DNA from: a virus
Lineage: Duplodnaviria > Caudoviricetes
IMG/VR virus record: IMGVR_UViG_3300034954_002602
Span: 1-63,934 of that record
Length of the DNA stretch: 63,934 nucleotides
Reading direction: 5' to 3' (one strand)
The notes under the pieces are model-generated. The model was given only the letters and a program-made list of their open reading frames with translations, ran no database searches and was not told the DNA's origin. A program made the position numbers and the translations under genes. Positions 3,925 through 61,801 of the stretch are shown here, piece by piece (position 1 is the stretch's first letter; each line of letters starts with the position of its first letter).

Positions 3925-3953
3925 ATTATATACTAGAAAGTGTATTATGTCAA
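3925..3953 (-). promoter_or_regulatory. sigma70-type promoter
   Basis: TTGACA-17nt-TATAAT on minus strand. Confidence 0.8.
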
Positions 3954-18413: not shown

Positions 18414-18800
18414 ATGCATTATAAAAGTAGAACATACCAGTTGAACTCATTGCGACTGGGACTTATTAATGAGGATAACCTCTACGGCAAGCCTACTGTC
18501 TTTGTTACTGTTGGTTCGCAAGGTCCAAATGTCGAACAAACTGTAAAAAAATATCTGCAAATGCACAAAGAAGGAAAGCACAACGTGATTGCGATACCAT
18601 ATGATCTCGAAGGATGGGAGCCAGGCGATGATTATGAAATATACACCTACTATGAAAATTTCCTAGGCATTGAATTCTATGTCACAGAAAAACTTAAACG
18701 AGATCATATCTTCTTTAAACATTTCGGTGTTCCAACTAAAAATTTCACAGAATATCATTTTACCAAGGATACAGCCTTCATAGGAATGTTCAATGAGTAA
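18414..18800 (+). CDS. hypothetical protein
   Basis: ORF 5 nt after TAATTA. Confidence 0.6.
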   Translation: MHYKSRTYQLNSLRLGLINEDNLYGKPTVFVTVGSQGPNVEQTVKKYLQMHKEGKHNVIAIPYDLEGWEPGDDYEIYTYYENFLGIEFYVTEKLKRDHIFFKHFGVPTKNFTEYHFTKDTAFIGMFNE

Positions 18801-21013: not shown

Positions 21014-21015
21014 CT

Positions 21016-30892: not shown

Positions 30893-31104
30893 GAATCTTC
30901 TTTCATTTCGTTACAACCTACTTCAATGCTTTCATAATCTTGTCCATAATAGGCAAAAACATCTGTCATTCCGTAGAAACGAGCGGCCGCATCTGACTCA
31001 CACTTGGCCAATTCTTGATATATTTTTCCTGTGCTGTCGTCATAATCGGTGCACTTCATCTCACCATTTACTAGGACACACATCACCATAAAAAGTTTGT
31101 ACAT
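30889..31104 (-). CDS. small Cys-containing hypothetical protein
   Basis: Start trimmed to MYKLFMVMC; architecture resembles 32231..32443. Confidence 0.6.
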   Translation of the reverse strand: MYKLFMVMCVLVNGEMKCTDYDDSTGKIYQELAKCESDAAARFYGMTDVFAYYGQDYESIEVGCNEMKEDS

Positions 31105-31115
31105 ACAAATAGTTA

Positions 31116-31397
31116 TGGCCCGTTCTGTTGCAAGGTGGGCCAAACCCCTGAGAATATTGGTTATTACGCCGCTAATCTCAATGCAGGCATACCGACTGTT
31201 AGGTCAGCAAACCCTAATGCTCTTTTGTTTGCATTTAAAAACTGGACGTATTCCTCGTGCCTACAGGGAGTTCTCGTAAAAAGTTTCAACGTGAATCGAT
31301 CCTAATTCCACCCCTCAAGTTTCATCGCTCAAATGGTGGAGTGGCTGGGAATTGCACCCAGGTCTTCACCGCCTATTGATTTCTAGTCAACAAACTC
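31116..31397 (-). ncRNA. ssrA: two-piece (circularly permuted) tmRNA; tag ANKRALGFADLTVGMPALRLAA
   Basis: Acceptor piece ends CTGGG-TGCAATT-CCCAG-CCACTCC-A-CCA (31334); 19-nt spacer; coding piece starts GGGGTGG..GGATCGA (31314); G3-U70 pair; tag ORF 31232-31164; outer ends approximate. Confidence 0.93.
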
Positions 31398-31404
31398 AAA
31401 TATA

Positions 31405-31433
31405 ATTATACCCTAAGGTTGACTGTTTGTCAA
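31405..31433 (-). promoter_or_regulatory. sigma70 promoter of tmRNA
   Basis: TTGACA-17-TATAAT; overlaps a divergent TTGACT-17-TAAATT promoter. Confidence 0.85.
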
Positions 31434-31454
31434 TTCTGTGCTAAATTAGTTTAT

Positions 31455-32444: not shown

Positions 32445-32472
32445 TTGACAGATCTCAAAGATATGCTATAAT
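32445..32472 (+). promoter_or_regulatory. sigma70-type promoter
   Basis: TTGACA-16-TATAAT with TG extension. Confidence 0.75.
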
Positions 32473-33803: not shown

Positions 33804-34311
33804 CCTACCTGACATCAATTTCAAGAGCAAGGGTAGACCAGAACTAAAGGAGTTGGCTGACTACATTGACAGGATGAAGTCAGACCTGTTCAATGATAGG
33901 TGGAGCCAGGTCACAAAGAAACACATCAAGACTTCGCTGGTGTTGTACATAAGATCAATGCAGAAACAGTTGGCACCAATGGGATATCACTACAGGGCAC
34001 AGGACATAGTAGGTAAACAACACCTTGAACACGTGATACCTCAGAACAAGATAATAACGGCATATCTGCACGACAAGATACCAGCGGAACTTATATTACA
34101 GATGCCATTGTGTATGATCGATGACGCAGACAAGCACATACTAGAAGGAGACTGGCAGACAGCAGGTAACTGGCAGTATCCATTCCGTAGATACCAATTG
34201 GCTGGCTTCACTAAAACCATAAAAGATGTGCGTGGAAACGTGGTAGATCTTGACAACTACACACTAGATGATCACTTCGCTATGTTGGGCGTGGTTGACA
34301 ATTCAAAGTAA
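33778..34311 (+). CDS. hypothetical protein with EHxxP His-Me-nuclease-like motif
   Basis: HLEHVIPQ. Confidence 0.5.
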   Translation: MIDYQNLTNLPDINFKSKGRPELKELADYIDRMKSDLFNDRWSQVTKKHIKTSLVLYIRSMQKQLAPMGYHYRAQDIVGKQHLEHVIPQNKIITAYLHDKIPAELILQMPLCMIDDADKHILEGDWQTAGNWQYPFRRYQLAGFTKTIKDVRGNVVDLDNYTLDDHFAMLGVVDNSK

Positions 34312-34322
34312 AAGTGTATAAT
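34295..34322 (+). promoter_or_regulatory. sigma70-type promoter
   Basis: TTGACA-16-TATAAT. Confidence 0.8.
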
Positions 34323-37157: not shown

Positions 37158-38456
37158 ATGCTAGACATATTTTTATTGTTGTCGTCTCCTTTCATAGGAA
37201 TCCTCGTTGGGTTCCTACCGGCGATGGGTGCATTCTTCACTTTGCTGTTGATGTACCCGTTGCTGATAGACATGGATCCTTTGTTGTTGATCCTATTTTA
37301 TTCAATCCTCATAAGTGCAAGAGACTTCAGCGGAAGCGTCAGTGCCTTGAATTTTGGAATACTGGGCGAGGTAACCAGCCTCCCGGTGTTGCAGGAGAGG
37401 AAAAAGATCATAGACAATCACAAACAAAAGGAAGCACTGCGAAACACAATGATAGGCAGTGTGTTCGGAATGGCAATGGGGTTGGCTTTCCTCTTACTGA
37501 TATTGGCAGGAATAGGTGACTACAGTGTGTTGTTACGAACAGATGTAATGGCAGTCTTGATTTGCCTTACTATAGTGTTCCTGGTGTTTTGGGACAAGAA
37601 CAAATGGTACATGAACCTTGTCATCGGGGCGTGTGGGTACCTCGTTGCTATGGTAGGGTTCGATCCATACATACAAAAAGAATACTTTACATTTGGCAAC
37701 GTATACCTGTCGGGTGGTGTTCCAACGATGCCTTTGCTCCTTGGACTTTACGGAGTGCCTGCTATGTTTGCCATTATAAGGCACACCAAACTTCAAAAAC
37801 CAAAGCCAATACACGACCAGGCCATGTCCAGGGTTCGTTTGCCTATCCTATTCAGGTCCAGCGTGATTGGTTCCTTGTGTGGATTCGTACCTTACATAGG
37901 TAGTGTGTTGAGCAGTAACATTGCCTATATGTTCGAGAAAAAAATAACAACAAACAATGTGAAGTCCGCACTAGACAGAATAGTGGCATCGGAAACAGCC
38001 AATAACGCCAGCCAGGTGACTGTGTTGATTCCATTCATCCTAATAGGAATCGCATTACAACCTTCCGAACTTTTAGTTTTAGATATGATAGAAAACAAAG
38101 GCTGGGAGATTAATTTTGAATCAGCGAAGCAAACTACTTTCTATCTTATAATAGCATTACCTATTGGATGTCTTGTATCTGCATTCTTGTGTTACAATAT
38201 GATCAGCCGGGTGTTGCATTTTTTCCAGTTGCATCATAAAAAAATTGTCTACTCTCTGTTGGCAATCATCATAGCAAATATTTTCTATCTTGGTTATGAC
38301 TCAAACCAGTCACTGTACTATATGCTGGTGTTCGCCACTGCGTTGCCAATTGGCTTTTATCTCAGAAAGCACTTTGATCTGATGCCTTTTATTATGTGTT
38401 TTTTGCTACAAAATCAGTTCCAAGAGACACTTATCAGGCTTCCCATACTGTATTAG
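37158..38456 (+). CDS. tctA: divergent TctA-like transporter subunit
   Basis: GFLPAMG, FSGSVSA..FGILGE, VG.DP...FTFG, SETANNA; multi-TM. Confidence 0.8.
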   Translation: MLDIFLLLSSPFIGILVGFLPAMGAFFTLLLMYPLLIDMDPLLLILFYSILISARDFSGSVSALNFGILGEVTSLPVLQERKKIIDNHKQKEALRNTMIGSVFGMAMGLAFLLLILAGIGDYSVLLRTDVMAVLICLTIVFLVFWDKNKWYMNLVIGACGYLVAMVGFDPYIQKEYFTFGNVYLSGGVPTMPLLLGLYGVPAMFAIIRHTKLQKPKPIHDQAMSRVRLPILFRSSVIGSLCGFVPYIGSVLSSNIAYMFEKKITTNNVKSALDRIVASETANNASQVTVLIPFILIGIALQPSELLVLDMIENKGWEINFESAKQTTFYLIIALPIGCLVSAFLCYNMISRVLHFFQLHHKKIVYSLLAIIIANIFYLGYDSNQSLYYMLVFATALPIGFYLRKHFDLMPFIMCFLLQNQFQETLIRLPILY

Positions 38457-38977: not shown

Positions 38978-39622
38978 ATGGTGAAAAAATACGTAAAAAG
39001 ATTTATCTATTTCTGTATATGTGTAGGCTTCGTTATTGTGGCCACATATATCGCAGGCACATTCCATCCTAATGATTACACAGTTCAGAAGATCGAAGAC
39101 GAGATTCACAGGAAGGAAATGAAGGTAGTGGAAGAACTTGGTTTGAAAGAACCAGAGTTTGAATTCACTGATAAAGTTTCTTTCATTAATGCTACCGCCA
39201 AATGTATTGCCTATCTCAACTGGACCACAGACAGAGATAAGAGAGTGCCCACTAGCATTATTATTGCAATGGCGGGTATAGAAAGTGCCTGGGGCAAGAG
39301 CAGATTCGCAAAAGAAGGTAATGCACTATTTGGTGTGAGGACCTGGGATCTCAAAGGCACACCACATATGAAAGCACTTGGCAATCCAGATGCAGAATGG
39401 GGTGTCAAAAAATACAACACAAAATGCCAATCTGTGAAAGATATGATAAGGATTTTAAACACGCACCCTGCATATGAGAAGTTCCGAGACTTCAGAGAAC
39501 AACAGATAGACGCAGGCGAATGGAACTACAGTCAACTATTATCCGGTATGACTGCCTGGAGCACCAATCCAGATTACCAAAAAATAATACTTTCTACCAT
39601 AGTTGACAATAAATTACCCTAA
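38978..39622 (+). CDS. Bax-like glucosaminidase (GH73) with N-terminal TM anchor
   Basis: A.IESAWGKSRFAKEGNALFGV, LNTHPAY..FR, WSTNPDY. Confidence 0.85.
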   Translation: MVKKYVKRFIYFCICVGFVIVATYIAGTFHPNDYTVQKIEDEIHRKEMKVVEELGLKEPEFEFTDKVSFINATAKCIAYLNWTTDRDKRVPTSIIIAMAGIESAWGKSRFAKEGNALFGVRTWDLKGTPHMKALGNPDAEWGVKKYNTKCQSVKDMIRILNTHPAYEKFRDFREQQIDAGEWNYSQLLSGMTAWSTNPDYQKIILSTIVDNKLP

Positions 39623-39636
39623 TAGTATAATTTAGA

Positions 39637-42775: not shown

Positions 42776-45475
42776 ATGTTTATAGCAATACTCACACTCC
42801 TATCGGCTCTATCCATTTCAGGTGTAGCGATATTCTATTCTGTAATTGGACTAGCCACAATATTCCCTGGAGCATTCTGGCCAGTGGTTATAATGGGATC
42901 AGTATTGGAAGTGGGTAAATTGGTCACGGCATCATGGCTGTACAGAAACTGGCGACACACCCGCTGGCTGTTGAAGACATACCTGACCATTGCGGTCATT
43001 GTGTTGATCTGTATAACGTCAATGGGTATCTTTGGTTTCCTATCCAAAGCACACCTAGAGCAGAACCTAGCGGAAGACACTGTCACACAACGGATCGACA
43101 TAATCAACAACAAGATACTGTCAGAAGAGACCTACATCAAGAGACAGAAAGACACTATCATAAGATTAGAGTCAACACTCAACAGGACCACAACGTCAAA
43201 CACAGGTGCACTGGACATAGAGATACAGAGCCTCAAGGACGCTGAAGACAAATTCAAAACACTACTTGCGGTCGAGACCAACACTGTGAAGGATCTCAAC
43301 GACCAACTCAAAACCACATTGAAAGACCTCAACGACAGATTGAGAACACTGGACAAGGATGTAAGCGATGTGCTCAACGCCAATAAACAGTTCTTCAATG
43401 AGGAGAGAGCGGCCGCTGAACTGAAAGCATCACAGAAGGAAGAGCGTGAACAGATCGCCAACAAGATAGCAGAAGCAGAGAAAACAATAGCGATCAAGAT
43501 AGCAGAAGCACAGGCCAGGATACAGATCCTCAAGGATGACTACGCCAAAGACACAGACAAGATACAGGCAAGGATCGATGGTTTGAGAAAAAGCAACGTC
43601 TCAGACAACTCAGATGTCAGCAACGACATTGAAAAAGCAGAACAGAACATCATTGACGCACAGAACAGGATAGACGGATACATCGTGGAGAGGGAACCAC
43701 TACAGAGTTCAATGTTGAAGTTGGAAGCGGAAGTTGGACCTGTGAAATACATAGCCGCACTGGCGGTTGATTTTGGAATAACAGATAAAGTAAACACTTC
43801 AGAAGCAGTGAGATGGGTGATACTGATCATCATTGTTGTGTTTGACCCACTGGCTGTACTACTATTGATTGCGGCAAACCAAAGTTTCCTAAGAAGATTC
43901 CCAGTCAAAGCACCAAAACCACAAGAAGTGATTGATCTGGAGAAACCAGATGAAGAAGATGTCACCCTTAAATGGAACGAGATGATTGATAAAGCCAAGG
44001 AACAAGCGGCCAAGGAAAATGCTGAGAAGCAAATGAAAGAGTGGCAGGACAAATTACAAGCATTTAACAAAAAAGTGCCACAACCAGAGGACAAGCCTGT
44101 GGAAATCGTGCAGGAGCAGGACGACAGCACAGTTCCATATGTAGAACTAAAAGGCCAAAAAAAAACTGAAGACGAAGAAATAGCAGTAGATAATATGAAA
44201 GATGGATTCGATCCAGACGAGGTGATGTTTGATCTTACAGAACCAGCGGTTGATAAACAAAAACAACTAGAAGAATTCAAGAAACGTGAGGAAGAAGAAA
44301 AAGCGGAACTAGAGCGTATAGCGGAAGAGGCCAGGAAAGAAGAAGTTACAACAACAGTTGAAGAAGCATTAAAAATGACAGAGGCAGAGAGTGTTGAAAC
44401 TCCAATCCAAGAAGAAAGGATCAAACCAGATCTTACAGAAGTAATTGAGCCTGAAGTGAAGATAGAGGACAAAGCACCAAAGAAACCAGTGGTTGGAATG
44501 TTGGGCACAAGGACCGTAGAAGAAAGAACAGGAAAGGTGGTAGAGCCCCCAAAGCCGGAACTGCCGAATCCGGCGGACCTGACAAGTGATGAACGTAAGA
44601 AAATGCTTGACGCATTTCACAACATCAATGGCAAATTTGAAGATATCACCCTTGAAGAATTGAAAATGGAGAGAGACGAAAGCAATAGAGCACAATACCT
44701 AGCAGACGTAAGCCTAACACGAGAAGATGCGGAATCACAACCTGCCATCACAGAGTCACGTATGAATTTCTTCCAAGATATGATAGATGACATCCTGCGT
44801 GGAGATACTACTTTTGAAAATGTACCTGAAGAGAATAGGAAGATCATAGCACAACTTATGGATCCAGAAATGCCTAACCCACCAATTATAACAAAAGGAT
44901 CTGCACTCATACCAGAAGGTGAAGAGGGAGTTGAAAAAACTACAGCAGAAGGTCTTAAAGAAAAGTTCATGGCACATCCTGAGTCGGAAGAACGACCGAT
45001 GACAGATCAAGAACTAGATGATTTACTTCAAGGGTGGGAAGATGAAAACAAACCAGAACCCGGACAAAAAACAAGAATGATCATAAGGAATGGGCAACGA
45101 GTCTTTGTTCCTGTGGAAGATAAAAAAGAAGAATACATACAGAACGAAGAGCAGTCTGATCAAACACTATGGCAGAAAAGCAAAGAACTAGACATACCAG
45201 AACCTGAGAAGAATGAGATAATCTTACCAGATCTAGAAAACACCGTAGACGAAGTGCCTGAGATAGTAGAAAACATTTCAATGGAGCAAAACATTCCTAG
45301 TGAAAAATTCGCCAAGTACAAAAAAAGAATTACCAGCGAAGAAGATTATCACCAGAGAATTGAGGCCAGGATCAACGACCTGATAACTAAATTAGAAAGC
45401 AAAGAAATAAAACTTTCTGACTTGTCCGAGGAAGACAAAAATGTTATAATTGAAATATTAAACCAAGACGAATAG
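42776..45475 (+). CDS. large membrane protein with coiled coil and acidic C-terminus
   Basis: 3 N-terminal TMs (LEVGKLV, TSMGIFGFLS), coiled coil, TM with VFDPLA, Glu/Pro-rich tail. Confidence 0.75.
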   Translation: MFIAILTLLSALSISGVAIFYSVIGLATIFPGAFWPVVIMGSVLEVGKLVTASWLYRNWRHTRWLLKTYLTIAVIVLICITSMGIFGFLSKAHLEQNLAEDTVTQRIDIINNKILSEETYIKRQKDTIIRLESTLNRTTTSNTGALDIEIQSLKDAEDKFKTLLAVETNTVKDLNDQLKTTLKDLNDRLRTLDKDVSDVLNANKQFFNEERAAAELKASQKEEREQIANKIAEAEKTIAIKIAEAQARIQILKDDYAKDTDKIQARIDGLRKSNVSDNSDVSNDIEKAEQNIIDAQNRIDGYIVEREPLQSSMLKLEAEVGPVKYIAALAVDFGITDKVNTSEAVRWVILIIIVVFDPLAVLLLIAANQSFLRRFPVKAPKPQEVIDLEKPDEEDVTLKWNEMIDKAKEQAAKENAEKQMKEWQDKLQAFNKKVPQPEDKPVEIVQEQDDSTVPYVELKGQKKTEDEEIAVDNMKDGFDPDEVMFDLTEPAVDKQKQLEEFKKREEEEKAELERIAEEARKEEVTTTVEEALKMTEAESVETPIQEERIKPDLTEVIEPEVKIEDKAPKKPVVGMLGTRTVEERTGKVVEPPKPELPNPADLTSDERKKMLDAFHNINGKFEDITLEELKMERDESNRAQYLADVSLTREDAESQPAITESRMNFFQDMIDDILRGDTTFENVPEENRKIIAQLMDPEMPNPPIITKGSALIPEGEEGVEKTTAEGLKEKFMAHPESEERPMTDQELDDLLQGWEDENKPEPGQKTRMIIRNGQRVFVPVEDKKEEYIQNEEQSDQTLWQKSKELDIPEPEKNEIILPDLENTVDEVPEIVENISMEQNIPSEKFAKYKKRITSEEDYHQRIEARINDLITKLESKEIKLSDLSEEDKNVIIEILNQDE

Positions 45476-45477
45476 AA

Positions 45478-46065
45478 ATGGCAAAAGGTGATAAGCACGT
45501 AGGTGCACAAGACGTACAAGGAAACAAAGAGCAAAAATCAGAAATTGCAGTCACAGGTGCAAAATTGGATCTAAGGAAAAAGAACGGAACCATAACATTA
45601 GTGACGCCTCCGAGTTTCTTTCAAAACCAAAACAGAAGTTTCTGTTTGATTAATCTTAGCAAAAAAGACAAAGATAATTTTGCTGACCAAATAAACAAAT
45701 ACTTTCCAAAGGACGACCTAACAATTTATCTGTGGGATGATAACAACTTTTCTGCACTGGATCCTTTTGGAGGCGATGATCCTGAATACGAGAGATATCT
45801 CGAGAACTGGAAACCAAACGCCAAGGGCAGAGACTACACTTGGTTGTTGAATGCCTGCAGGGCGGCAACCACTGTAATATTGAATATGGACTACAGTTCT
45901 AATCAAATGAAAGTATGGTCAGGTTACATTCTCACAATGGCCAAGACTTGGTTCCTAAACTCCAATGTAGATGATTCAGCATCGTTTGGTGTACTAAACA
46001 GAAACAAGATCAACGGAATGCACGAGTTGTTTCCAAAGATCCAAAAACTCAAAGATAATCAGTAA
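45478..46065 (+). CDS. hypothetical protein
   Basis: Coupled to clpX. Confidence 0.65.
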   Translation: MAKGDKHVGAQDVQGNKEQKSEIAVTGAKLDLRKKNGTITLVTPPSFFQNQNRSFCLINLSKKDKDNFADQINKYFPKDDLTIYLWDDNNFSALDPFGGDDPEYERYLENWKPNAKGRDYTWLLNACRAATTVILNMDYSSNQMKVWSGYILTMAKTWFLNSNVDDSASFGVLNRNKINGMHELFPKIQKLKDNQ

Positions 46066-47309
46066 TGTCCGAAGAGACATTGGTATGCTCGTTCTGTAGC
46101 AAGAGTCGTAAAGACGTCACCAAGATGATCGTTGGTGCAAAGAAAACATCAATTTGCAATGAGTGTGTTAAATTGTGTGTTGAGATCCTAGAAGAAGATG
46201 TGATCAAAGCACGTAAGGAGAAACTGTACGCAGGTGACAAAAACATACTCAATCCTGTGGCAATCAAAGAACACCTTGATCAATATGTGATAGGCCAAGA
46301 TCAAGCAAAGACTATCCTTAGTGTTGCAGTGGCGAACCATTACAAACGAATTGTTCAGCCACCTATTGACTTCGAACTAGACAAGTCAAACGTGATGGTG
46401 CTTGGTGCCACTGGTGCAGGTAAAACACTAATGGCGAGGACAATCGCGAAATACTTGGACGTTCCATTTGCGATAGCAGACGCAACCACATTGACAGAAT
46501 CAGGATATGTTGGTGAGGATGTTGAGAACGTGGTGCAGAAACTGTATGCCAATGCAGAAGGTGACATTGAGAAAACTGAAAAAGGAATAATATTCATAGA
46601 CGAGATTGACAAGATCTGCCGTAAAGGAGAGAACACATCTCTCACCAGAGACGTGTCGGGCGAGGGTGTGCAACAAGGGTTACTGAAGATAGTAGAGGGC
46701 ACGGAGTGTAGGGTGCCTCCACATGGCGGACGAAAGCATCCAGATCAGCAGACTGTGACAATAGACACAAAGAACATATTGTTTATAGTTGGAGGTGCGT
46801 TCACAGAATTAGAGAAACAAATAAGATCAAAGAAATCTGGAGGGATAGGCTTTGGCACACAACTGAGAGAACAGGATGAGAAGAATTATCTCAGTGAAGT
46901 AAAACCAGAAGATCTAATCAAATATGGACTTATACCAGAATTTGTTGGAAGGTTCTCAATGATCACAAACATAGATCCTTTGAATGAAGCACAGTTGATC
47001 AGAATATTGACAGAACCTCGTAACGCCATATTGAAACAGGTACACTACCTGTTTGGACTGGACAACATAGAAATTGAATTTACCAAAGAAGCCAAGCAGA
47101 GCATAGCCAAGAAAGCAAAAGCACTGGGCACCAACGCAAGGGGACTTAAAAACGTAGTAGATACTGTGGTTCTTCCCTATCAATTTGACGCTGAGGAGAT
47201 GAGAAGCAAGGGAGTTGGCAAGATACAGATAACTAATGCGGTGGTTGACAATGAAGCAGACCCTGTGTTAGTATTTAAAAAAGATGGATCAACAAAGAAA
47301 CAAATTTAA
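46065..47309 (+). CDS. clpX: ATP-dependent Clp protease ATPase subunit ClpX
   Basis: CSFC..CxxC Zn finger, [35 protein letters not shown] loop. Confidence 0.95.
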
Positions 47310-47577
47310 ATCAAAATTTAGAAAAAACAATAGACCCTTAGGTTTCCAAGGTTATTATGTTGAAGTGCGTGAGGGTGAAGATGCCGTCAGAGCATACAGG
47401 AAGATCAAGAGATGGATCAAAGAGGACAAGTTCATTGATCAGATAAGAGCCAACAATACATACACAAAGCCATCCGCTATCAAAAGAGAAAAGCAGAAAG
47501 AACGTAGGAGAATCCTACGTAAATTGCAACGTGAACGAGATAGCAACATCTTTCTTGGCGTAAAACGAGGCAGATAA
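47284..47577 (+). CDS. rpsU: ribosomal protein bS21
   Basis: VEVREGE...A.RK.KR...Y.KPS..KR; N-terminal basic extension. Confidence 0.75.
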   Translation: MDQQRNKFKSKFRKNNRPLGFQGYYVEVREGEDAVRAYRKIKRWIKEDKFIDQIRANNTYTKPSAIKREKQKERRRILRKLQRERDSNIFLGVKRGR

Positions 47578-47599
47578 TTTTACCAAAAAAGGTCGCAAT

Positions 47600-47632
47600 T
47601 TGACATATAGTACATATATGTTATAATAAATA
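47600..47632 (+). promoter_or_regulatory. overlapping sigma70 and late promoters of hsp20
   Basis: TTGACA-16-TATAAT overlapping TAAATA. Confidence 0.75.
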
Positions 47633-47634
47633 CA

Positions 47635-47698
47635 GTTGAAGATTGCTATAGATAGGATCTTCACAACATTAACTCGCTTAACAATAGGAGGAAAGCAA
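47635..47698 (+). promoter_or_regulatory. ROSE-like RNA thermometer
   Basis: 5' hairpin TGAAGAT..ATCTTCA; CTCGCT (UYGCU) pairs with SD AGGAG with bulged G. Confidence 0.6.
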
Positions 47699-48139
47699 AT
47701 GACAAAACATCTATCTATTTTTAATAACCTAAGACCATACACAGTAGGATTTGACGACTGGTTCGATCACTTCGAAACAATGATGGACGACAGTTTCTTC
47801 AGAGGAACTAGCAACTTCCCACCATACAACATAGTGAAGACTGGTGACAACACCTACGATGTTGAACTTGCTCTTGCAGGTTTCAACAAAGACGACATCG
47901 AAGTAGAATATAAAGAGAATCTACTTACAGTCAAATCCAAGAAACAGGAAGAGACTAAAGACGAGGATGGTAATGTGATACAACACAGAGGCATTTCAAA
48001 GAGAATGTTTTCTAAATCATTTACCATTGCCAACGATGTAGAAGTCAAGGGTGCAGAACTCAAGGACGGCCTATTAAAAGTGTCAATGGAGAGAATAATC
48101 CCAGAACACAAGAAGGCTAAACTTATCGACATCAAGTAA
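47699..48139 (+). CDS. small heat shock protein Hsp20 (IbpA-like)
   Basis: FPPYNI, ELALAGF, HRGIS.R.F, A.LKDGLL. Confidence 0.93.
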   Translation: MTKHLSIFNNLRPYTVGFDDWFDHFETMMDDSFFRGTSNFPPYNIVKTGDNTYDVELALAGFNKDDIEVEYKENLLTVKSKKQEETKDEDGNVIQHRGISKRMFSKSFTIANDVEVKGAELKDGLLKVSMERIIPEHKKAKLIDIK

Positions 48140-48150
48140 TGCAAACAAAT

Positions 48151-48176
48151 GGATAGGGTGGTAAAACACCCTGTCC
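48151..48176 (+). terminator. hairpin after hsp20 (probable terminator)
   Basis: GGATAGGGTG-GTAAAA-CACCCTGTCC; weak U-tract. Confidence 0.55.
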
Positions 48177-48212
48177 TAATTGACAACTATCACAGATGTG
48201 TTATAATAAGGT

Positions 48213-48515
48213 ATGACAATGGCAGATATACAAACACTTACAAAAGAAAAAATTAAACTAGATGAACCTGGAATGTACGATGTGATATTCCTTAACGACA
48301 ACATCACCACTATGGAGTTCGTTGTTAAAGTTCTAAAACAGATATTCAACAAGACTCCTGAGCAGGCACAGAACATCACTATGAGGATACACCAGGACGG
48401 ACAGGGTATCGTGGGATCTTACACACACGAAGTTGCCGAGCAGAAGGGTATAGAAGCGACACTGGCCGCTAGGCAAGAGAACTTCCCACTCCAGATCAAA
48501 GTCAAGAAACAGTGA
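48213..48515 (+). CDS. clpS: Clp protease adaptor ClpS
   Basis: YDVIFLND..TTMEFVV.VL..IF, IH..G.G, AE.K, FPL. Confidence 0.93.
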   Translation: MTMADIQTLTKEKIKLDEPGMYDVIFLNDNITTMEFVVKVLKQIFNKTPEQAQNITMRIHQDGQGIVGSYTHEVAEQKGIEATLAARQENFPLQIKVKKQ

Positions 48516-48853
48516 TTGATTTTAGAGCATACGTTGAGAAAAATCAAAAAATAATACAATTCGTCAAAGACGTAACTCCTGGATACCTCGACAAATATGT
48601 TGGCACATTAGATTACGCCACTGCAAGGTTTAATACAATTTTAATTAAACTGTCACAAGATCCATTGATGGCTGATCAATGCAAAAAAGAAGTCGAGGAT
48701 TGTTTCAACACCACACAAGACTTTTATGATTACACAGTTAGACTCTCAAATGCAACTTGGGTCTCAAGATGGTACTACAGATTTATACTACACATAAAAG
48801 GCACCTTGCACATTCCAAAGATCAAATTTCTTCTAGATAAAATCAATAATTAA
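48512..48853 (+). CDS. hypothetical protein
   Basis: GTGA overlap with clpS. Confidence 0.55.
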   Translation: MIDFRAYVEKNQKIIQFVKDVTPGYLDKYVGTLDYATARFNTILIKLSQDPLMADQCKKEVEDCFNTTQDFYDYTVRLSNATWVSRWYYRFILHIKGTLHIPKIKFLLDKINN

Positions 48854-48857
48854 CCAT

Positions 48858-49886
48858 ATGACCATATGGGCAGAATTCACTCCGTTGAAAAAATGTGTCG
48901 TGGGCACTCTGCCTGATGCAGATCAAATACTACCTCACACCAACCTAACCAATAGGTACAAGAAATATTTTACAGAAATAATCAATACATCAAAGAAAGA
49001 ACTGGACCAACTTGCAAAGACGTTGAATGATCTTGGAGTGCAAACATCGAGAAGCAAACAGCATTATCCAATACACAATGGCCACACAATCACAACACCA
49101 CCGTTGGCGGTAAGGGATATTTTCTCAGTGTATGGTAATGGTTTATTCAAAGGTAACTTTGCTTGTGAATGGAACAAAGATGTACCGGACTCGTGCAACC
49201 ACGTGCTTGAATCTATGAAGTTTGATAGTGTCACAAAACTACCCACCAATGATATTTTCTTTGATGGAGATTTCACTACCTTTGATCCTGACAAGGATTT
49301 GAATCGTCCGTTGTTCCATCCACCTATGTCCTTGCGTATTGGTAACGATATTGTTATTGCAAAAAGATATGGGAGAGAGGGCAACGATCTAGGCAAAGAT
49401 GCCTACATAGATTGGTTGAGATCTATCAACCCTTCTGTGAGGATACACACGATAGACACAGAGAGTCATATCGATTCACAAATATTTTTAGTGCGTCCTG
49501 GCTTACTGATAACTTGTTTACAAGATAACAAACTGCCCGAATATTTTGATAAATGGGAAAAGGTAAAAGTAAAAGCGGTGACATCGCAGGCACTCCATAA
49601 GAAAAATCGCTACAGGCACAAAAAGTTCCATCCGGTCATTGCCCAGTCATTTTACAATTTTTTAGAAACTTGCACAGAAGAGACATACTTCGACATCAAC
49701 AGTCTAAGTGTGAATGAAAACACTGTACTATTCACAGGACGCCATACGGAACTTTTTAGAAAACTCGAAAGGAGAAATGTCAACTGTGTAGCAATAAGTA
49801 TGAAAGCAACCACATTCTGGGACACGGGAGTTCATTGTGCAACTAACGAACTGGAAAGGGAAGGAACTTTAGAAGATTATGCTTAA
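48858..49886 (+). CDS. amidinotransferase-family protein
   Basis: EFTPLKKCVVG, VRD, HIDS..LVRPGL, GVHCATN. Confidence 0.8.
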   Translation: MTIWAEFTPLKKCVVGTLPDADQILPHTNLTNRYKKYFTEIINTSKKELDQLAKTLNDLGVQTSRSKQHYPIHNGHTITTPPLAVRDIFSVYGNGLFKGNFACEWNKDVPDSCNHVLESMKFDSVTKLPTNDIFFDGDFTTFDPDKDLNRPLFHPPMSLRIGNDIVIAKRYGREGNDLGKDAYIDWLRSINPSVRIHTIDTESHIDSQIFLVRPGLLITCLQDNKLPEYFDKWEKVKVKAVTSQALHKKNRYRHKKFHPVIAQSFYNFLETCTEETYFDINSLSVNENTVLFTGRHTELFRKLERRNVNCVAISMKATTFWDTGVHCATNELEREGTLEDYA

Positions 49887-50082
49887 TTGGTTATTTTGGG
49901 CGATACCCAGACAATACATTAGGCCCTACATATTCGCCTTATGGTTGGTGATGTTCTTCCTGCCTGCGTACATTATGGGATTGCAATTAACAAAGTTAGG
50001 ATTTATAATAAACTGGATCTGGTTCGACGTAGTGTTCTATGGTTGGGTCAGGGCCAAACAAATGTTAGGAGACGATGAATGA
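49879..50082 (+). CDS. small membrane protein
   Basis: Hydrophobic, Trp-rich. Confidence 0.55.
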   Translation: MLNWLFWAIPRQYIRPYIFALWLVMFFLPAYIMGLQLTKLGFIINWIWFDVVFYGWVRAKQMLGDDE

Positions 50083-50300
50083 AAGCAATAGTATGGAGTA
50101 AACCTGCGTGTGTTTACTGCGAGAAATCAAAAGCCTTGCTGAAAGCAAAAGGTATAGAATATGAAGAGAAGAACATAGCAGAAGGACACAAGATACAGGA
50201 CCTTTTGGAACTTGTACCAAACGCAAGGACGATGCCACAGATATGGTTAGATGAGGAACACATAGGTGGTTTCTTTGAGTTGGAGAAGAAACTCAAGTAA
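50079..50300 (+). CDS. glutaredoxin
   Basis: CVYC, TMPQI, IGGF. Confidence 0.9.
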   Translation: MKAIVWSKPACVYCEKSKALLKAKGIEYEEKNIAEGHKIQDLLELVPNARTMPQIWLDEEHIGGFFELEKKLK

Positions 50301-50350: not shown

Positions 50351-50536
50351 ATGATCAAGGAAGCATTGATTAAGAAACTGGAAGGCGAGATAGAGGTAGC
50401 AAAAACAGACCTTAGAACTTTCCTAGCAAATCCGATCGGCGTGGCAGAACACATCGATTACGTGATTACTGCTGAGAAAAAGTTAGAAGCACTCGCTCAC
50501 GCAGAAGATAAACTTGAATCGCTGAACAAGTTATAA
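50351..50536 (+). CDS. hypothetical protein
   Basis: AAGGAG SD; NPIGVAEH motif. Confidence 0.7.
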
Positions 50537-50862
50537 TGACATACACTGTCAATGACAAGTGTATTATGTGTAAGCACACTGACTGTGTGGAGGTGTGTCC
50601 TGTTGACTGTTTCTACGAAGGCGAAAATATGCTTGTCATCAACCCAGATGAATGTATAGACTGTGGCGTGTGTGAACCGGAGTGTCCTGAGGATGCAATA
50701 TTGCCAGACACAGACGACAACGGCAGAGGGTGGGTGGACTTCAATAGGAAATGGTCGACTTCGGGTTGGCCTGTACTGACCAGTAAGAAAGATTCTTTAG
50801 ATCCTGATGGAAAGCACAAGAACGAAGATAACAAACTAGAAAAATATTTTAAAGATAAATGA
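50536..50862 (+). CDS. fdxA: 7Fe-type ferredoxin FdxA
   Basis: [33 protein letters not shown]. Confidence 0.93.
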
Positions 50863-51454: not shown

Positions 51455-52040
51455 TATAGAAGTAAATGCAACTCATTGTAATACCTGGCCCACTCTGGTA
51501 TTGGAAATCAACAATAACAAAATATTTTCTGATCTAGTCAAAGATAGGCAGAAAATCAGTTTAGAATACACGGATCTCAAACAACAAGGAAACAAATTCG
51601 TAATCGGAATGATTAGAAAAAGTTTTGGCCTCGCTGATATATGGGATACCGTTTACAAAAACAACATCGTAGTACAAGACAAGAAGATAGAAATCCTAAG
51701 TTTAAAATTAGATGATGTTGAATGCAAAGATTTATTAGGGAGCCGTTTCTACGTTCAACGGACAGGTAAGCAACCAAGTTATTTTCCGGACGTTGTGGAG
51801 TCAACTGGCGTGATGAACTACAATGGATATTTTACTTTTGACTTCGATCTGCCTTTGTACAATTCTATAATCAACAAGAAATACAAACAACAAGAAAACA
51901 AGGATCTCAGTTACTTCAGTAATTACACCAAGGTGTTTCATTACGACGACGAAATAAAAGTAATAAACGAAATCAACAGTATATTGAAAGAAGTGGATGA
52001 AAAATTTAGTCATAAGCGTTCCAAGATTAGAAATTCATAG
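51444..52040 (+). CDS. hypothetical protein
   Basis: Overlaps both neighbours. Confidence 0.6.
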   Translation: MKIDIEVNATHCNTWPTLVLEINNNKIFSDLVKDRQKISLEYTDLKQQGNKFVIGMIRKSFGLADIWDTVYKNNIVVQDKKIEILSLKLDDVECKDLLGSRFYVQRTGKQPSYFPDVVESTGVMNYNGYFTFDFDLPLYNSIINKKYKQQENKDLSYFSNYTKVFHYDDEIKVINEINSILKEVDEKFSHKRSKIRNS

Positions 52041-53520
52041 ACCGCCTATCAGTACAGCGATAGTTGCCGAAGTGATAAGGACCACTGGTGCTCCAGTACA
52101 GGCACTTGACTTGAATTGTGAATTCTATCATTTTTTGCCTGACAGGCAGGCATACTACAGTTGGGATGAAATTTGGGACCAAGTACGGAACCCAACCTTT
52201 ACGGAACTAAAAAACTTATTTAGATTCATCAAGCAGAGCCTTGAAAAAATGAAATCTTATGATAGATATTGGATCAGTGTTTTTGGTTCGTCGGGGCATA
52301 TCTTTTCAAAACTGCTCTGCAAGTTTATTCGGAAACATCTGCCAAATAAGATAGTGATACTAGGAGGACAGGGAGCCGCCGCGAAGGATCTACATTCAAA
52401 GGACGTGGGATTTGGTAATGTCCTCAGGAAGCAAGGACTATGTGATATGTATCTCACAGGCGAGGGAGAAGAAGTCATTAAACAAGTGCTGGCAGGAAAC
52501 ACTGACGGTCCAGGCATAAACAATGAGGATCCTGTGCAGATCGACGACATAAATGATCTTCCATTCCCGAACTACAGTTTCTACGATCTAGATCGCTATG
52601 ACTACCTTGACAAGAAAGAAGTGTTCATAGTCGGTAGCAGAGGATGTGTGAGACGATGCACGTACTGTGACGTCGCCAAGTATTGGCCCAAGTTCAGATA
52701 CAGGTCCGGTGAGAACATAGCATCTGAGATGATCAATCATTACGAGAAACACGGAGTCACAAAGTTCTACTTCACTGACAGTCTGATCAATGGCAGTATG
52801 AAAGCGTTCAATGATATGTGTGATAGGCTTGCCAAATACAACACAGACCACAAGGCAGGCTTCACGTGGAAGGGACAGTTCATATTCAGACCCAAAAATC
52901 AACTGCCCCAGGATCACTTCGCCACCGTGGCCGCGGCGGGTGGTAAGGAGTTCTACGTAGGTGTTGAAACGGGCAGTGATAAAATCAGATGGGAGATGGA
53001 CAAGAAGTTTACCAACGAAGACATAGACTTCCAACTAGAGGAGTTCAGCAAGTACAATATAAATGTGATATTCCTTATGTTGATTGGTTACGTTACCGAA
53101 ACACTAGATGATCACAAGGACACTCTCAAGATGTTCAAGCGTTGGCAGAAGTATGTGGCCACAGGCACGATCAAAGGCATCGATCTTGCCACTGGATTGC
53201 TGTTCCTGTCTGACACGCCTTTGCAACGTCAGATAGATCAACACGGAGTCTATTTCTTGAATGCCGAAGGAAACGAACCAGGAAAGCCTTACACAGGATT
53301 GTGGCAGGCCAAGACCAATCCTGATCTAGATGTACCAGAGAGGATACGTAGGAGGATGGAGACGCACATGGAGGCCATCAAGTACAACTGGCCCATATGG
53401 AGAGGCGAGCAAAGGCTCAATCACATCAAGCATATGACACAGAAGTATTTGGATTACCTTAAAGGACAATCTGACAATTTGGTAAAAATAAAGATAGGCA
53501 ACCTGAACTTCTTTGAATAG
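51997..53520 (+). CDS. B12-binding-domain radical SAM protein
   Basis: ILGG, GEGE, LPFP.Y, SRGCVRRCTYC, FTDS, GVETGS, GYVTET. Confidence 0.85.
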   Translation: MKNLVISVPRLEIHRPPISTAIVAEVIRTTGAPVQALDLNCEFYHFLPDRQAYYSWDEIWDQVRNPTFTELKNLFRFIKQSLEKMKSYDRYWISVFGSSGHIFSKLLCKFIRKHLPNKIVILGGQGAAAKDLHSKDVGFGNVLRKQGLCDMYLTGEGEEVIKQVLAGNTDGPGINNEDPVQIDDINDLPFPNYSFYDLDRYDYLDKKEVFIVGSRGCVRRCTYCDVAKYWPKFRYRSGENIASEMINHYEKHGVTKFYFTDSLINGSMKAFNDMCDRLAKYNTDHKAGFTWKGQFIFRPKNQLPQDHFATVAAAGGKEFYVGVETGSDKIRWEMDKKFTNEDIDFQLEEFSKYNINVIFLMLIGYVTETLDDHKDTLKMFKRWQKYVATGTIKGIDLATGLLFLSDTPLQRQIDQHGVYFLNAEGNEPGKPYTGLWQAKTNPDLDVPERIRRRMETHMEAIKYNWPIWRGEQRLNHIKHMTQKYLDYLKGQSDNLVKIKIGNLNFFE

Positions 53521-53555: not shown

Positions 53556-53954
53556 ATGATTGATATGCCACCTGGATGGACTCCACAACAAAATCCTTCT
53601 GTCGATCCCCAACTGAAAACTGACCTTAGCGATATACAAGAACATCCACCAACTCAGCAGGAATACATCTCTAAAATTGTAGAAAAATTGAAAACCTGCT
53701 ACGATCCTGAAATCAGTGTTGACATATACAATCTTGGTCTAGTTTACGACATCAAGGTGACAGAGGACGGTTGGGTACACGTGTTGATGAGTCTCACGAG
53801 TGCTTTCTGTCCTGCCGCTGATATGATACCAAGGGACGTGCAACAGGCCATTGAAAGCATTCCAAATCTAAAATGTAAAGTAAAGATCACAATGCAACCA
53901 CAGTGGGGTCGTGACATGATCAATCCAGAAGTAAGAGGTCTGATGGGACTATGA
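53556..53954 (+). CDS. SufT/MIP18 (DUF59) Fe-S assembly protein
   Basis: LKTCYDPEISVDIYNLGLVY, MSLTSAFCP, P.W. Confidence 0.9.
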   Translation: MIDMPPGWTPQQNPSVDPQLKTDLSDIQEHPPTQQEYISKIVEKLKTCYDPEISVDIYNLGLVYDIKVTEDGWVHVLMSLTSAFCPAADMIPRDVQQAIESIPNLKCKVKITMQPQWGRDMINPEVRGLMGL

Positions 53955-55573
53955 TCAGACTGATACTTGTACTTGCATTTTTCTTTACACACGCTAACGC
54001 AAAGGTTGATGATTGCGAATGGGATAATGAAACCCCTTGCGTGGTGATAAGCAAGGGCATAAACAATTCAAACGCAATCGGTAACAAGGTATCACCAACA
54101 CACACCATAACAAAATCAGAGATTATAAAGTATAGACTAATTGACCTGCCCAGGGCACTGAACTACATTCAAGGACTGGCAGTGACACAGTCAGGGCCGA
54201 CAGGACAACAGGCATCACTGTTCCTGAGGGGTACCAATTCTAATCAAACATTAGTGTTATTGAATGGCATACCAATCAATGACTTCTCAACACCCACAGG
54301 TGCACACGACTTTGGCCAGGACTTTATGTTCAATGTTGTGCAGATAGATGTGTACAAAGGATCACAGGGTGCTCATTGGGGAGCGGACGCTGTTGGTGGT
54401 GCTATCAATTTCAGGACAACTGTGGATTATGATCAGAGATTAAGTTTATCTGGAAATGGCAATGATAAAACTATCAGTGGTAACTTCTACACTAAATTAA
54501 ACGACTTCGACATATCTGTTTCGGCAGGTGAACATCAATCAAGAAACGTTTCTGCTCTATCAGGTGCTGATGAGAAGGATGGCACAAAGAATCAAACCAT
54601 AGGGGTTAACGTAAGCAAATGGTATGATCTCATACACTGGCGAACAACTTGGTTCGCAAGGAACACTTTCTCTGACATAGATGGTCATAGTGTTGCTCTG
54701 CAAGATGGATATTTTGCTGACAACACTTTCTTTGCGTTACAGACTGGCATTGATTATTTGAACAACAGTCTTACTTTCCACACACACGAATATGATAGAG
54801 ATTACTACAGAGCAGATTACGAAAGTGAAAACTACACAATCAGAGGAACACATCAAACAGAAAAGTATGGTTTTGGTTTTGATTACAAACACAACGAAGC
54901 AATAGGCAAATACACAAACATTCATCAACGTCATAATCTAGGGTACTTCTTTAACTTCTCACATAATATATTCTCATATCATCACAGGTTTGATGAGGAA
55001 CACGAAACATACAAGTTGGGTTTCTTCAAAGAGATAGGAGATGGTTTAAGTCTAAGTGGTAGCACATCAACAAGTTACAGAGATGAAACATCATACACCA
55101 GCATAGAGTATGGTGATTCACAAGAACTGACATTGACTAAAAATAATTTCGCAACTACTATATTCAAGAATGATATTGGTAATCTCAATTCTGACGGTAT
55201 AGAATTCAGTTACAAGCAAGAAAACTCCAAATTCTTCATCAGTCATTTGAACAGCAAGACAAATGACAGTGTCAATTTGAGGAGACCAAACTGGAGTCTT
55301 GGATTTATGCACACGCAGGATCTATCAAACAACTTCACTCTAACAACAAACTACAAATACAAAGGCAAACACTTAGATGTACACAATGTCACATATGAAA
55401 GTGGAATATCGATGCCAGAGACACACCTATTGGATCTAAATCTCGGATACAACTACCATGGCATAGAGTTTGGTGTGAGCCTGTTAAATTTGCTTGATGA
55501 GGACTACGAAGCACCGCACGGTTTCAGCCAAGAGGGAAGGAAATTTACAATGGGATTCAAAAGGAGTTTCTAA
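53951..55573 (+). CDS. TonB-dependent outer membrane receptor (BtuB-like, short)
   Basis: Signal peptide; plug LRGTNSNQTLVLLNG..IDVYKG..G.DAVGGAIN; NLLD..Y...G...GR; terminal F. Confidence 0.85.
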   Translation: MIRLILVLAFFFTHANAKVDDCEWDNETPCVVISKGINNSNAIGNKVSPTHTITKSEIIKYRLIDLPRALNYIQGLAVTQSGPTGQQASLFLRGTNSNQTLVLLNGIPINDFSTPTGAHDFGQDFMFNVVQIDVYKGSQGAHWGADAVGGAINFRTTVDYDQRLSLSGNGNDKTISGNFYTKLNDFDISVSAGEHQSRNVSALSGADEKDGTKNQTIGVNVSKWYDLIHWRTTWFARNTFSDIDGHSVALQDGYFADNTFFALQTGIDYLNNSLTFHTHEYDRDYYRADYESENYTIRGTHQTEKYGFGFDYKHNEAIGKYTNIHQRHNLGYFFNFSHNIFSYHHRFDEEHETYKLGFFKEIGDGLSLSGSTSTSYRDETSYTSIEYGDSQELTLTKNNFATTIFKNDIGNLNSDGIEFSYKQENSKFFISHLNSKTNDSVNLRRPNWSLGFMHTQDLSNNFTLTTNYKYKGKHLDVHNVTYESGISMPETHLLDLNLGYNYHGIEFGVSLLNLLDEDYEAPHGFSQEGRKFTMGFKRSF

Positions 55574-61345: not shown

Positions 61346-61801
61346 ATGTTTAGAAAATTAATTTTCATAATGATCCTGGGTGTGACCGCACAGGCCTCAG
61401 AATTGACGCACGAGTTCAAAAACCCGTCATTCTCTGGCAATGGCTACAGCACCCACGTTCTTTCAATCGAGCAACTGCGATACAGCAGGAAGAACGATGT
61501 GAGGGATGAGCAGAGAAGGCTGGAATCACAGGCCAAGAGGGACGAAGAGAACACCACAATCAACAAATTCATCAAGAACGTGGAGTCAAGGATCTACGCA
61601 AACCTATCAAAACAACTTGTTGACAATATGTTCGGAGAGAGTTGCTCAGGCGAGTGTCCCACAAGCGGTACTGCTGAAGTGGAAGGCGACACGATCTACT
61701 GGGTAAAAGACACAACAACAGAAACGATTACACTGACAGTTACGGGACAGGATGGAACTGTGACAACAATGACTATACCAATGGGAGATTTCAATTTCTA
61801 A
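61346..61801 (+). CDS. csgF: curli assembly protein CsgF-like
   Basis: Signal peptide then SEL...FKNPSFSG. Confidence 0.75.
   Translation: MFRKLIFIMILGVTAQASELTHEFKNPSFSGNGYSTHVLSIEQLRYSRKNDVRDEQRRLESQAKRDEENTTINKFIKNVESRIYANLSKQLVDNMFGESCSGECPTSGTAEVEGDTIYWVKDTTTETITLTVTGQDGTVTTMTIPMGDFNF

Follow-up and report, generated by a model that had tools for sequence, protein, structure and literature searches.

A conserved ClpX, bS21, Hsp20 and ClpS gene block and a tmRNA with a long tag in a jumbo phage genome fragment: a probable inherited proteostasis and translation kit

The stretch of viral DNA analyzed here, referred to as the window, is the whole of IMG/VR record IMGVR_UViG_3300034954_002602 (63,934 bases; 41.7% G+C), and it carries neighboring genes for the unfoldase ClpX, ribosomal protein bS21, the small heat-shock protein Hsp20 and the N-degron adaptor ClpS, together with a two-piece transfer-messenger RNA (tmRNA) gene on the other strand. 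The four protein genes probably represent a vertically inherited, early-expressed block, the products of which would act side by side as a phage proteostasis and translation kit and not as a closed circuit in which a degradation tag is both written and read by the phage; the same overall judgment assigns the window phage to an aquatic lineage of jumbo phages (∼300–370 kb) with a relationship to the PA5oct/Paride group, which is in culture. This block does not constitute a new system; it belongs to a known kind of phage, is inherited there as a kit, and has already been annotated in relatives that are in culture.

The completeness of the window was estimated at 17% (CheckV), or roughly a sixth of an expected ∼370 kb, so that a gene missing from it has little meaning. 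When viral contigs were scanned for the ClpX protein, 390 relatives emerged, and the best 80 of these 390 loci were analyzed. Whole records were searched for ClpP, ClpA and SmpB for 50 of the 80, namely the 15 closest and 35 others picked for length; five of the relatives are near-complete (at least 90% complete, 316–349 kb). Insertions aside, one complete genome (G025) is collinear with the window over its initial 45 kb, and so is a marine record of 115 kb (G052). A search of a phage collection returned no near match; Pelagibacter phages were matched by Hsp20 alone, at 66% nucleotide identity. This type of phage recurs in the sea: at least half of the sampled words from positions 45400–48900 were present in seven DNA runs labeled marine metagenome, which derive from three studies, in addition to the probable source sample.

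All four genes of the block are intact and lie on the plus strand where an earlier note on this DNA had placed them (Table 1). ClpX scored 531 bits against NCBIfam model NF003745 (cut-off 359) and 495 bits against TIGR00382 (cut-off 370.75), with a zinc finger at residues 7–44 (PF06689, 50.7 bits; cut-off 27), and residues 5–407 align to the solved ClpX 9ndj. In this alignment the zinc finger is in place, the ClpP-docking loop reads GGIGFG, and the loops to which the earlier note had drawn attention (GYVG, the pore-2 region, GRKHP and GGIGF) are matched motif for motif, as are the Walker A and B motifs. Among the 80 related loci, GYVG and the CxxC cysteine pairs of the zinc finger are present in every one and RKH in 76, and the [IM]GF docking loop is retained in the common ClpX variants. 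The protein is predicted to function as an unfoldase and to dock on a ring of ClpP. The bS21 gene product exceeds the cut-offs of PF01165 (34.7 bits; cut-off 27) and TIGR00030 (35.6 bits; cut-off 28.95) and bears a basic N-terminal extension of ∼25 residues. Hsp20 was identified with PF00011 (61.3 bits; cut-off 20.8) and phrog_432 (156 bits), and scores under the IbpA equivalog cut-off (95.4 versus 212 bits). Its mechanically defined reading frame spans 47636–48139, with a TTG start at 47636 directly after a promoter; because that promoter ends at 47627, the ATG at 47699 is the likely start.

ClpS scored 97.5 bits against PF02617 (cut-off 23) over residues 18–95, whereas the best of the NCBIfam equivalog models, NF000669, gave 89.7 bits, below its cut-off of 149. 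The core of the protein aligns to the ClpS proteins of Caulobacter and Escherichia coli. The substrate pocket, which we take to consist of the motif N-D-D-x-T-x-M plus a histidine, reads LNDNITTMEFV in the window, where the histidine is retained, compared with LNDDYTPMEFV in the solved proteins. The second aspartate of the motif is replaced by asparagine in the window and in most relatives, and the motif is conserved across 69 loci.

The order ClpX-Hsp20-ClpS on one strand was found at 67 of the 80 loci, with a median span of 2.5 kb; of the remaining 13, eight are truncated within 3 kb downstream of ClpX and five are without one or both genes in the DNA covered. An S21 gene directly follows ClpX in 48 of the 50 whole records, including all five that are at least 90% complete. 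The fixed gene order across these records indicates that the block is inherited vertically across a giant-phage lineage and was not assembled in the window phage; as judged from its sequence, it is conserved and surely functional. Two genes of no known family precede ClpX. The larger, encoding an 899-aa protein with neither a Pfam family above cut-off nor a PHROG, has a homologous stretch upstream of ClpX at 79 of the 80 loci, and the smaller, encoding a 195-aa protein that likewise has no Pfam or PHROG match, is conserved at 68–88% in six close relatives, with weaker conservation elsewhere. It is conceivable that either protein is a ClpX substrate, adaptor or anchor.

A cultured counterpart of the arrangement was found in the Pseudomonas phage Paride (OR805295.1), a Wroclawvirus of the PA5oct group, where it is held by Paride_0053 to Paride_0058. 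As in the window, the Paride block comprises ClpX, an S21 gene overlapping the ClpX end, Hsp20 and a 100-aa ClpS-like gene in the same order and on the same strand, downstream of two ribonucleotide reductase genes. Amino acid identities between the two phages are 42% for ClpX, 43% for ClpS, 30% for Hsp20 and 47–48% for ribonucleotide reductase, and a ClpP gene is located 9.5 kb downstream of the Paride block. The two arrangements differ in that Paride has two additional genes between S21 and Hsp20, has no tmRNA, lacks the 899-aa membrane gene before ClpX, and infects Pseudomonas and not a marine bacterium. In the Paride record ClpX is annotated as hypothetical and ClpS as “ATP-dependent protease.” Agrobacterium phage Atu_ph07 (MF403008.1) is also a jumbo phage with ClpX (47.7% identical to that of the window), ClpS and Hsp20, in addition to ClpA and ClpP; however, its Clp genes are scattered over 490 kb, with ClpX beside IF3 and topoisomerase genes, and no tmRNA was found in it.

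Components of this kind have already been described in the literature. Seven scattered Clp genes are reported in Atu_ph07, where they were suggested to serve protein turnover, the control of replication and the survival of the infected host (Attai et al., 2018; PMC6102473), and ClpP, ClpS, ClpA, ClpX and Hsp20 have been recorded in jumbo phages, where ClpS was read as feeding the host ClpAP protease (Iyer et al., 2021; PMC7824862). Huge phages with tmRNA, SmpB and S21 proteins bearing N-terminal extensions have been described (Al-Shayeb et al., 2020; PMC7162821), and in phage G, which also has a tmRNA, ClpP adjoins ClpX and both proteins were detected in virions (PMC12484599). The accessible part of the PhageExpressionAtlas preprint covers host clpP and clpX, not phage genes. 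Within the portions available, ClpX, S21, Hsp20 and ClpS were not found presented as one block, and supplements may list the genes. The earlier note had offered the arrangement as a candidate for an undescribed system, a view that does not survive the annotation of the same ordered block in Paride and the published jumbo-phage Clp, Hsp20, S21 and tmRNA genes; the window adds little beyond cultured phages and earlier surveys.

From these data we infer the activities of the kit, its early expression by host RNA polymerase and its partners as follows. ClpX would dock on a ClpP ring, which is phage-encoded in most relatives and, in the sub-clade of the window, may be either an unfound phage ClpP or that of the host. 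ClpS would pass N-degron substrates to a phage ClpA, Hsp20 would hold unfolded proteins, and bS21 would enter host ribosomes and bias translation initiation. The tmRNA would be an accessory gene apart from the block, with a strong promoter of its own, and would depend on host SmpB; because of its LAA-ended tag, the rescued products would become substrates of any ClpXP or ClpAP present in the cell. A lineage of aquatic jumbo phages would then carry a nearly self-sufficient protein-turnover kit for which only SmpB comes from the host, and such a kit fits long infections by very large genomes.

The tmRNA gene is of the permuted, alpha type, and was identified in the window and its relatives with ARAGORN and Rfam covariance models. 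In the window, ARAGORN placed it at 31073–31426 on the minus strand, and it scored 78.7 bits against RF01849 (gathering score 50) and 85.4 bits against RF04321 (gathering score 47). It is upstream of ClpX with a start-to-start distance of 14.6 kb, in agreement with the ∼15 kb given in the earlier note. The tag reading frame comprises 22 codons, ANKRALGFADLTVGMPALRLAA, followed by two stop codons. All 14 copies from the sub-clade, the window included, contain a 22-codon frame of the form ANK[KR]ALGFADLTVGM[SP][EA]LRLAA; in two of the 14 ARAGORN chose a shorter frame, four loci (L323, L328, L431, and L433) had an Rfam tmRNA match without an ARAGORN call, and the tags of L431 and L433 were taken from the Rfam alignments. 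Synonymous changes occur at at least 10 of the tag codons, and replacements are confined to positions 3–4, 11, and 14–18. These many synonymous changes and few replacements suggest that the tag is under selection at the peptide level. The tags of more distant relatives are ANDEVYALAA, ANDNVYALAA, ANDEQFALAA, ANDSQFALAA and ADENLALAA, and every tag that was read ends in LAA, the portion of the tag that is read by ClpX.

When a one-genome-per-species collection was searched with a degenerate pattern covering residues 1–13 of the long tag, a single stretch was matched, and no other record of that species-representative collection matched the long tag. The stretch is on a 46,675-base contig of a metagenome-assembled genome (MAG) titled “Rickettsiales bacterium” (G062; L430–L433), and is evidently a phage contig binned into the MAG, since the coordinates and score of its tmRNA are equal to those of record G015. 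This MAG contains three alpha-type tmRNA genes, of which the best is cell-like (185 bits; tag ANDNEMALAA) and the other two are on phage-like contigs and have the long tag, one of them as a 25-residue variant. The presence of jumbo-phage contigs in a Rickettsiales MAG is a possible but weak hint as to the host. The long LAA-ended tag, together with the perfect promoters described below, appears from the records compared to be specific to the sub-clade of the window.

In bacteria, tagging is carried out by tmRNA and SmpB, ClpXP and ClpAP recognize the ssrA tag, and ClpS and ClpA serve the N-degron pathway. The phage components resemble this system in the two-piece tmRNA, the LAA-ended tag, the tag-recognizing loops of ClpX and the co-occurrence of ClpS and ClpA in the sub-clade; they differ from it in that SmpB is missing (0/50 records), no ClpP was found in the sub-clade, and the tag has 22 residues compared with the usual ∼10. 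A permuted alpha-type ssrA gene behind an early-type promoter is also a feature of Melnitz and the pelagimyophages, marine phages with smaller genomes (∼140–150 kb); for the two-piece tmRNAs of marine myophages, the upkeep of hijacked ribosomes or the tagging of host proteins for recycling has been proposed in the part of the source available (Buchholz et al., 2022; PMC9004378). In one complete myophage record (147 kb), the alpha tmRNA has a short tag (ANFNEYALAA), unlike that of the window, and neither ClpX nor ClpP is present. No glutamine riboswitch was detected in the window at Rfam gathering thresholds.

The earlier note had joined the tmRNA and the Clp genes into one circuit that plugs into host ClpP and redirects proteolysis and ribosome recycling. 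Spelled out, the tmRNA would write a phage-specific degron that the phage ClpX prefers to host tags, and ClpX, the sub-clade having lost its own ClpP, would dock on host ClpP, to the benefit of the phage. The co-occurrence check proposed in that note was carried out and gave a positive result within a single clade: tmRNA and ClpX are found together in 13 of the 15 close relatives, the remaining two of which reach only 17–19 kb upstream of ClpX, and a permuted tmRNA is present in all five near-complete genomes (four above the gathering score and one at 38 bits). The linkage is, however, not general, so that co-occurrence within the clade can be the result of inheritance alone. In four complete relatives the distance between tmRNA and ClpX is 141–165 kb, with the tmRNA in tRNA clusters in both of those inspected, and the two components occur apart in Paride and Atu_ph07 (Clp genes, no tmRNA found) and in the 147-kb myophage (tmRNA, neither ClpX nor ClpP), which is at odds with a dedicated circuit. 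The circuit is favored by the selected long tag of the 14 sub-clade tmRNAs, by the confinement of the 13-residue pattern to a phage-like contig in a MAG whose best tmRNA reads otherwise, by the IGF loop retained in both ClpX and the sub-clade ClpA, by the 10–22 kb linkage of tmRNA and ClpX in all 13 sub-clade records with a tmRNA, and by the failure to find ClpP at its ancestral place in the sub-clade. Conversely, the GYVG and RKH motifs of ClpX are equal to those of relatives with ordinary 10-residue ANDE..ALAA tags, with no visible adaptation to a long tag, ClpA is phage-encoded in the sub-clade, and ClpP may be elsewhere in the sub-clade genome, of which ∼150 kb of an estimated 370 kb is covered. 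A circuit of this kind therefore appears unlikely. That the phage encodes both a tag writer and a tag reader is borne out to the extent that a tmRNA with an LAA-ended tag and a loop-intact ClpX are both present, with SmpB absent in 50/50 records; a closed circuit does not follow.

Which Clp partners are encoded by the phage could be addressed from the relatives. The earlier note had reported that clpP, clpA and smpB are missing from the window, as was also found here: ClpP and SmpB searches of the window gave no matches, and no open reading frame (ORF) fits a full-length ClpA. No profile search aimed at ClpA was made in the window, where the only two ORFs longer than 600 aa encode a ribonucleotide reductase and the membrane protein, so that a full-length ClpA is not present. 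The genome-wide search for clpP and smpB that the note had proposed was run on the 50 whole records, in which SmpB was not detected above cut-off (0/50). ClpP was found in 21, comprising none of the 15 close relatives and 21 of the 35 others, with all five near-complete genomes among them. In many relatives it is located 3–30 kb downstream of the block. Two copies ∼2 kb apart are present in 18 of the 21 ClpP records (G025, G034, G037, G041, G042, and 13 others), one canonical (∼210–276 bits) and one diverged (∼90–100 bits); in the single diverged copy that was aligned, the serine and histidine are kept. Two unlike copies in most relatives make a mixed ClpP ring in these phages possible. A full-length ClpA-like gene was detected in 12 of the 50 records, including the five near-complete ones, at 775–876 bits (below the equivalog cut-off of 993), and the gene order in all five near-complete genomes is ClpX, ClpP pair, ClpA. 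On the basis of these whole-record searches, the lineage as a whole encodes ClpX, ClpA, ClpS, ClpP, Hsp20, bS21 and tmRNA, with SmpB left to the host.

For the sub-clade of the window itself, the region beyond the window end was reconstructed from overlapping contigs. In G052 a ClpP gene lies ∼6.5 kb beyond the point matching the window end, with ClpA further on. The closest record overlapping the window end (G051; 83–94% amino acid identity) extends 17 kb further and contains no ClpP, although the syntenic ClpP place is covered. The last gene of G051 is overlapped at 95% identity by G057 (41.6% G+C), which is collinear with G052, G054, and G025 and encodes, at the syntenic site, a 778-aa ClpA (890 bits) that aligns to E. 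coli ClpA residues 3–752, N domain included, with a docking loop that reads IGF versus IGL in E. coli. The ClpS of the window sub-clade thus very probably has a phage ClpA partner ∼45 kb beyond the window end, as read from a chain of contigs from different samples, and because this walk reaches a full ClpA, ClpS most likely serves the phage protein. The proposal of the earlier note that the specificity subunits are plugged into host ClpA is contradicted by this gene and by the full ClpA of the five complete relatives. Its proposal of host ClpP fails as a general design, given the ClpP genes of 21/35 distant and 5/5 complete relatives, but may hold for the sub-clade, in the covered records of which no ClpP was found.

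Two further explanations bear on these partners. The first is that ClpX works without ClpP as a remodeling or unfolding chaperone in replication or virion assembly, with ClpS, Hsp20 and S21 as unrelated neighbors; ClpX is known to act in this way on MuA and lambda O. Translocase or assembly roles have been proposed for jumbo-phage ClpA and ClpX in the part of the survey available (Iyer et al., 2021; PMC7824862), the ClpP and ClpX of phage G were seen by virion mass spectrometry, as far as the accessible text goes (PMC12484599), and the sub-clade records covered yielded no ClpP. Against this, the common variants among the 80 loci retain the [IM]GF docking loop, many relatives have ClpP downstream of the block, and the fixed four-gene order across distant relatives speaks against chance neighbors, so that this explanation is regarded as very improbable. 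The second is that the host is the main target of ClpS, which would bind host ClpA, block ssrA-tagged and other substrates and shift ClpAP to N-degrons, and so protect phage proteins or destroy those of the host. ClpS has been described as modulating the substrates of ClpAP (Dougan, 2002, cited in the available part of PMC6102473), phage ClpS has been read as bringing targets to host ClpAP (Iyer et al., 2021, portions available; PMC7824862), and the window gene has a perfect promoter of its own. Since the lineage, sub-clade included, encodes a ClpA with an N domain as a phage partner, and the largely retained pocket residues would fit substrate delivery better than plain blocking, a mainly host-directed ClpS is likewise given very little credence.

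Several observations weigh against the proposal of a side-by-side kit. ClpS, Hsp20 and ClpA all score under the NCBIfam equivalog cut-offs, and these proteins have therefore diverged. A selected, phage-specific 22-residue tag is not predicted by a plain housekeeping role for the tmRNA. Within the sub-clade the tmRNA is 10–22 kb upstream of ClpX in 13 of the 13 records that contain a tmRNA, and this nearness, together with a promoter type common to tmRNA, Hsp20 and ClpS, fits some co-regulation. ClpP was found neither in the 15 close records nor in G051, G056, or G057; it was not detected across the sub-clade ClpX-to-ClpA interval, which is where all five complete relatives keep their ClpP genes, nor in ∼60 kb upstream (on the chain of contigs from different samples, with ∼200 kb of the genome unseen). 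A search with a single ClpP sequence found no locus with flanks matching the window or G051 at at least 80%, and an eight-sequence ClpP profile gave none among the matches listed. Because ClpP was not found from ClpX to ClpA, the host-ClpP part of the circuit of the earlier note may be right in this sub-clade. The several points could be united if the sub-clade had lost ClpP and kept ClpX, ClpA and ClpS with intact docking loops for use on host ClpP rings, if its tmRNA had evolved a 22-residue degron specific to these phages (ANK[KR]ALGFADLTVGM..LRLAA), the conserved middle of which were read by a phage factor that sorts rescued from host-tagged proteins, and if tmRNA, Hsp20 and ClpS were switched on together right after infection from perfect sigma-70 promoters, a combination that is considered improbable. 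The inherited kit remains the preferred explanation. The missing ClpP of the sub-clade offers a test case for hybrid proteases composed of phage unfoldase and host ClpP, and the long selected tag one for a phage that writes a private degron.

The proposed early expression of the block is founded on its promoters. The window contains seven exact sigma-70 sites (TTGACA-N16–18-TATAAT) compared with 0.06 expected from shuffled sequences, and the tmRNA, Hsp20 and ClpS genes each have one of the seven just in front (Table 1). Downstream of the tmRNA promoter, the match to RF04321 starts at 31397, at a distance of 8 bases from the −10 hexamer. The −10 hexamer of the ClpS promoter ends 5 bases before the ATG, and in L001, L005, L006, L007, and L009 the ClpS match starts at an equal distance from the hexamer, so that the ClpS mRNA is presumably leaderless or nearly so; a leaderless-type mRNA would then arise beside the phage bS21 gene. 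Since the genes for the 899-aa protein, the 195-aa protein, ClpX and bS21 abut or overlap, their arrangement suggests a single transcript. Early transcription of the block by the host RNA polymerase is envisaged from these promoters, and the use of perfect host-type promoters for presumably early genes by a giant phage is perhaps worth a study of its own.

Table 1. Coordinates of the features of the window discussed in the text.
Feature	Position	Strand	Description
899-aa membrane-anchored acidic protein, no known family	42776..45475	+	First gene of gapless run (899-aa gene, 195-aa gene, ClpX, bS21); context only
195-aa protein, no known family	45478..46065	+	Stop codon overlaps ClpX start by one base
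ClpX	46065..47309	+	414 aa; AAA+ unfoldase; NF003745, TIGR00382, zf-C4_ClpX, AAA_2
bS21	47284..47577	+	97 aa; PF01165, TIGR00030; overlaps ClpX end by 26 bases
Hsp20 promoter, perfect sigma-70	47600..47627	+	TTGACA-16-TATAAT, TG before −10; exact copy in 12/13 close relatives
Hsp20 (IbpA-like small heat-shock protein)	47699..48139	+	146 aa from ATG 47699; PF00011, phrog_432
ClpS promoter, perfect sigma-70	48180..48207	+	Exact copy in 6/12 close relatives holding ClpS
ClpS N-degron adaptor	48213..48515	+	100 aa; PF02617; alignment to Caulobacter and E. coli ClpS
tmRNA gene, two-piece (permuted, alpha-type)	31073..31437	-	ARAGORN, RF01849, RF04321
tmRNA promoter, perfect sigma-70	31405..31433	-	TTGACA-17-TATAAT; exact copy at equal place in 6/13 close relatives
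Exact sigma-70 sites	3925-3953(-), 31405-31433(-), 32445-32472, 34295-34322, 39603-39631, 47600-47627, 48180-48207		

Data from four RNA-library runs were available as contigs, the depth of which cannot rank genes and among which DNA may be present. Contigs at least 90% alike pile up on Hsp20 (47225–48538) in X16, X17, and X18, which are marine RNA libraries, each of a different study, with bin depths at Hsp20 of 92–197 in X16 and X17 and 2–14 in X18 and of at most 7.1 in other bins; uncovered parts in these three runs are uninformative. Contigs over the tag region of the tmRNA (31145–31268) were found in two RNA libraries, and in the fourth run (X10), which comes from the probable source sample and may contain DNA, all 30 bins were covered at low depth. 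The pile of contigs is a hint, and not proof of transcription, that Hsp20 is strongly expressed.

Other genes of the window include two small ORFs downstream of the block that are conserved in close relatives, one with a CxxC motif (50079–50300; glutaredoxin/NrdH-like by eye only) and one with two CxxCxxCxxxCP motifs (50536–50862; ferredoxin-like by eye only). Four radical SAM proteins, two with SPASM domains, are encoded at 18793–23315 and 51997–53520; three of the genes are clustered at 18793–23315 around a 330-aa gene of no family, and similar genes adjoin ClpP in relatives. A 540-aa protein with a TonB-dependent receptor Plug domain (53951–55573; 64 bits) has homologs beside ClpP in G052 and related loci. 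Two TctA-family genes, for the large subunit of tripartite tricarboxylate transporters (5250–6686 and 37158–38456; 317 and 177 bits), are unusual phage cargo. Finally, a 266-aa protein of unassigned function (61801–62601; phrog_20175, 286 bits) is 62–69% identical to the products of genes on many marine viral contigs, among them a complete 147-kb myophage record, and its gene is common to unrelated marine phage groups.

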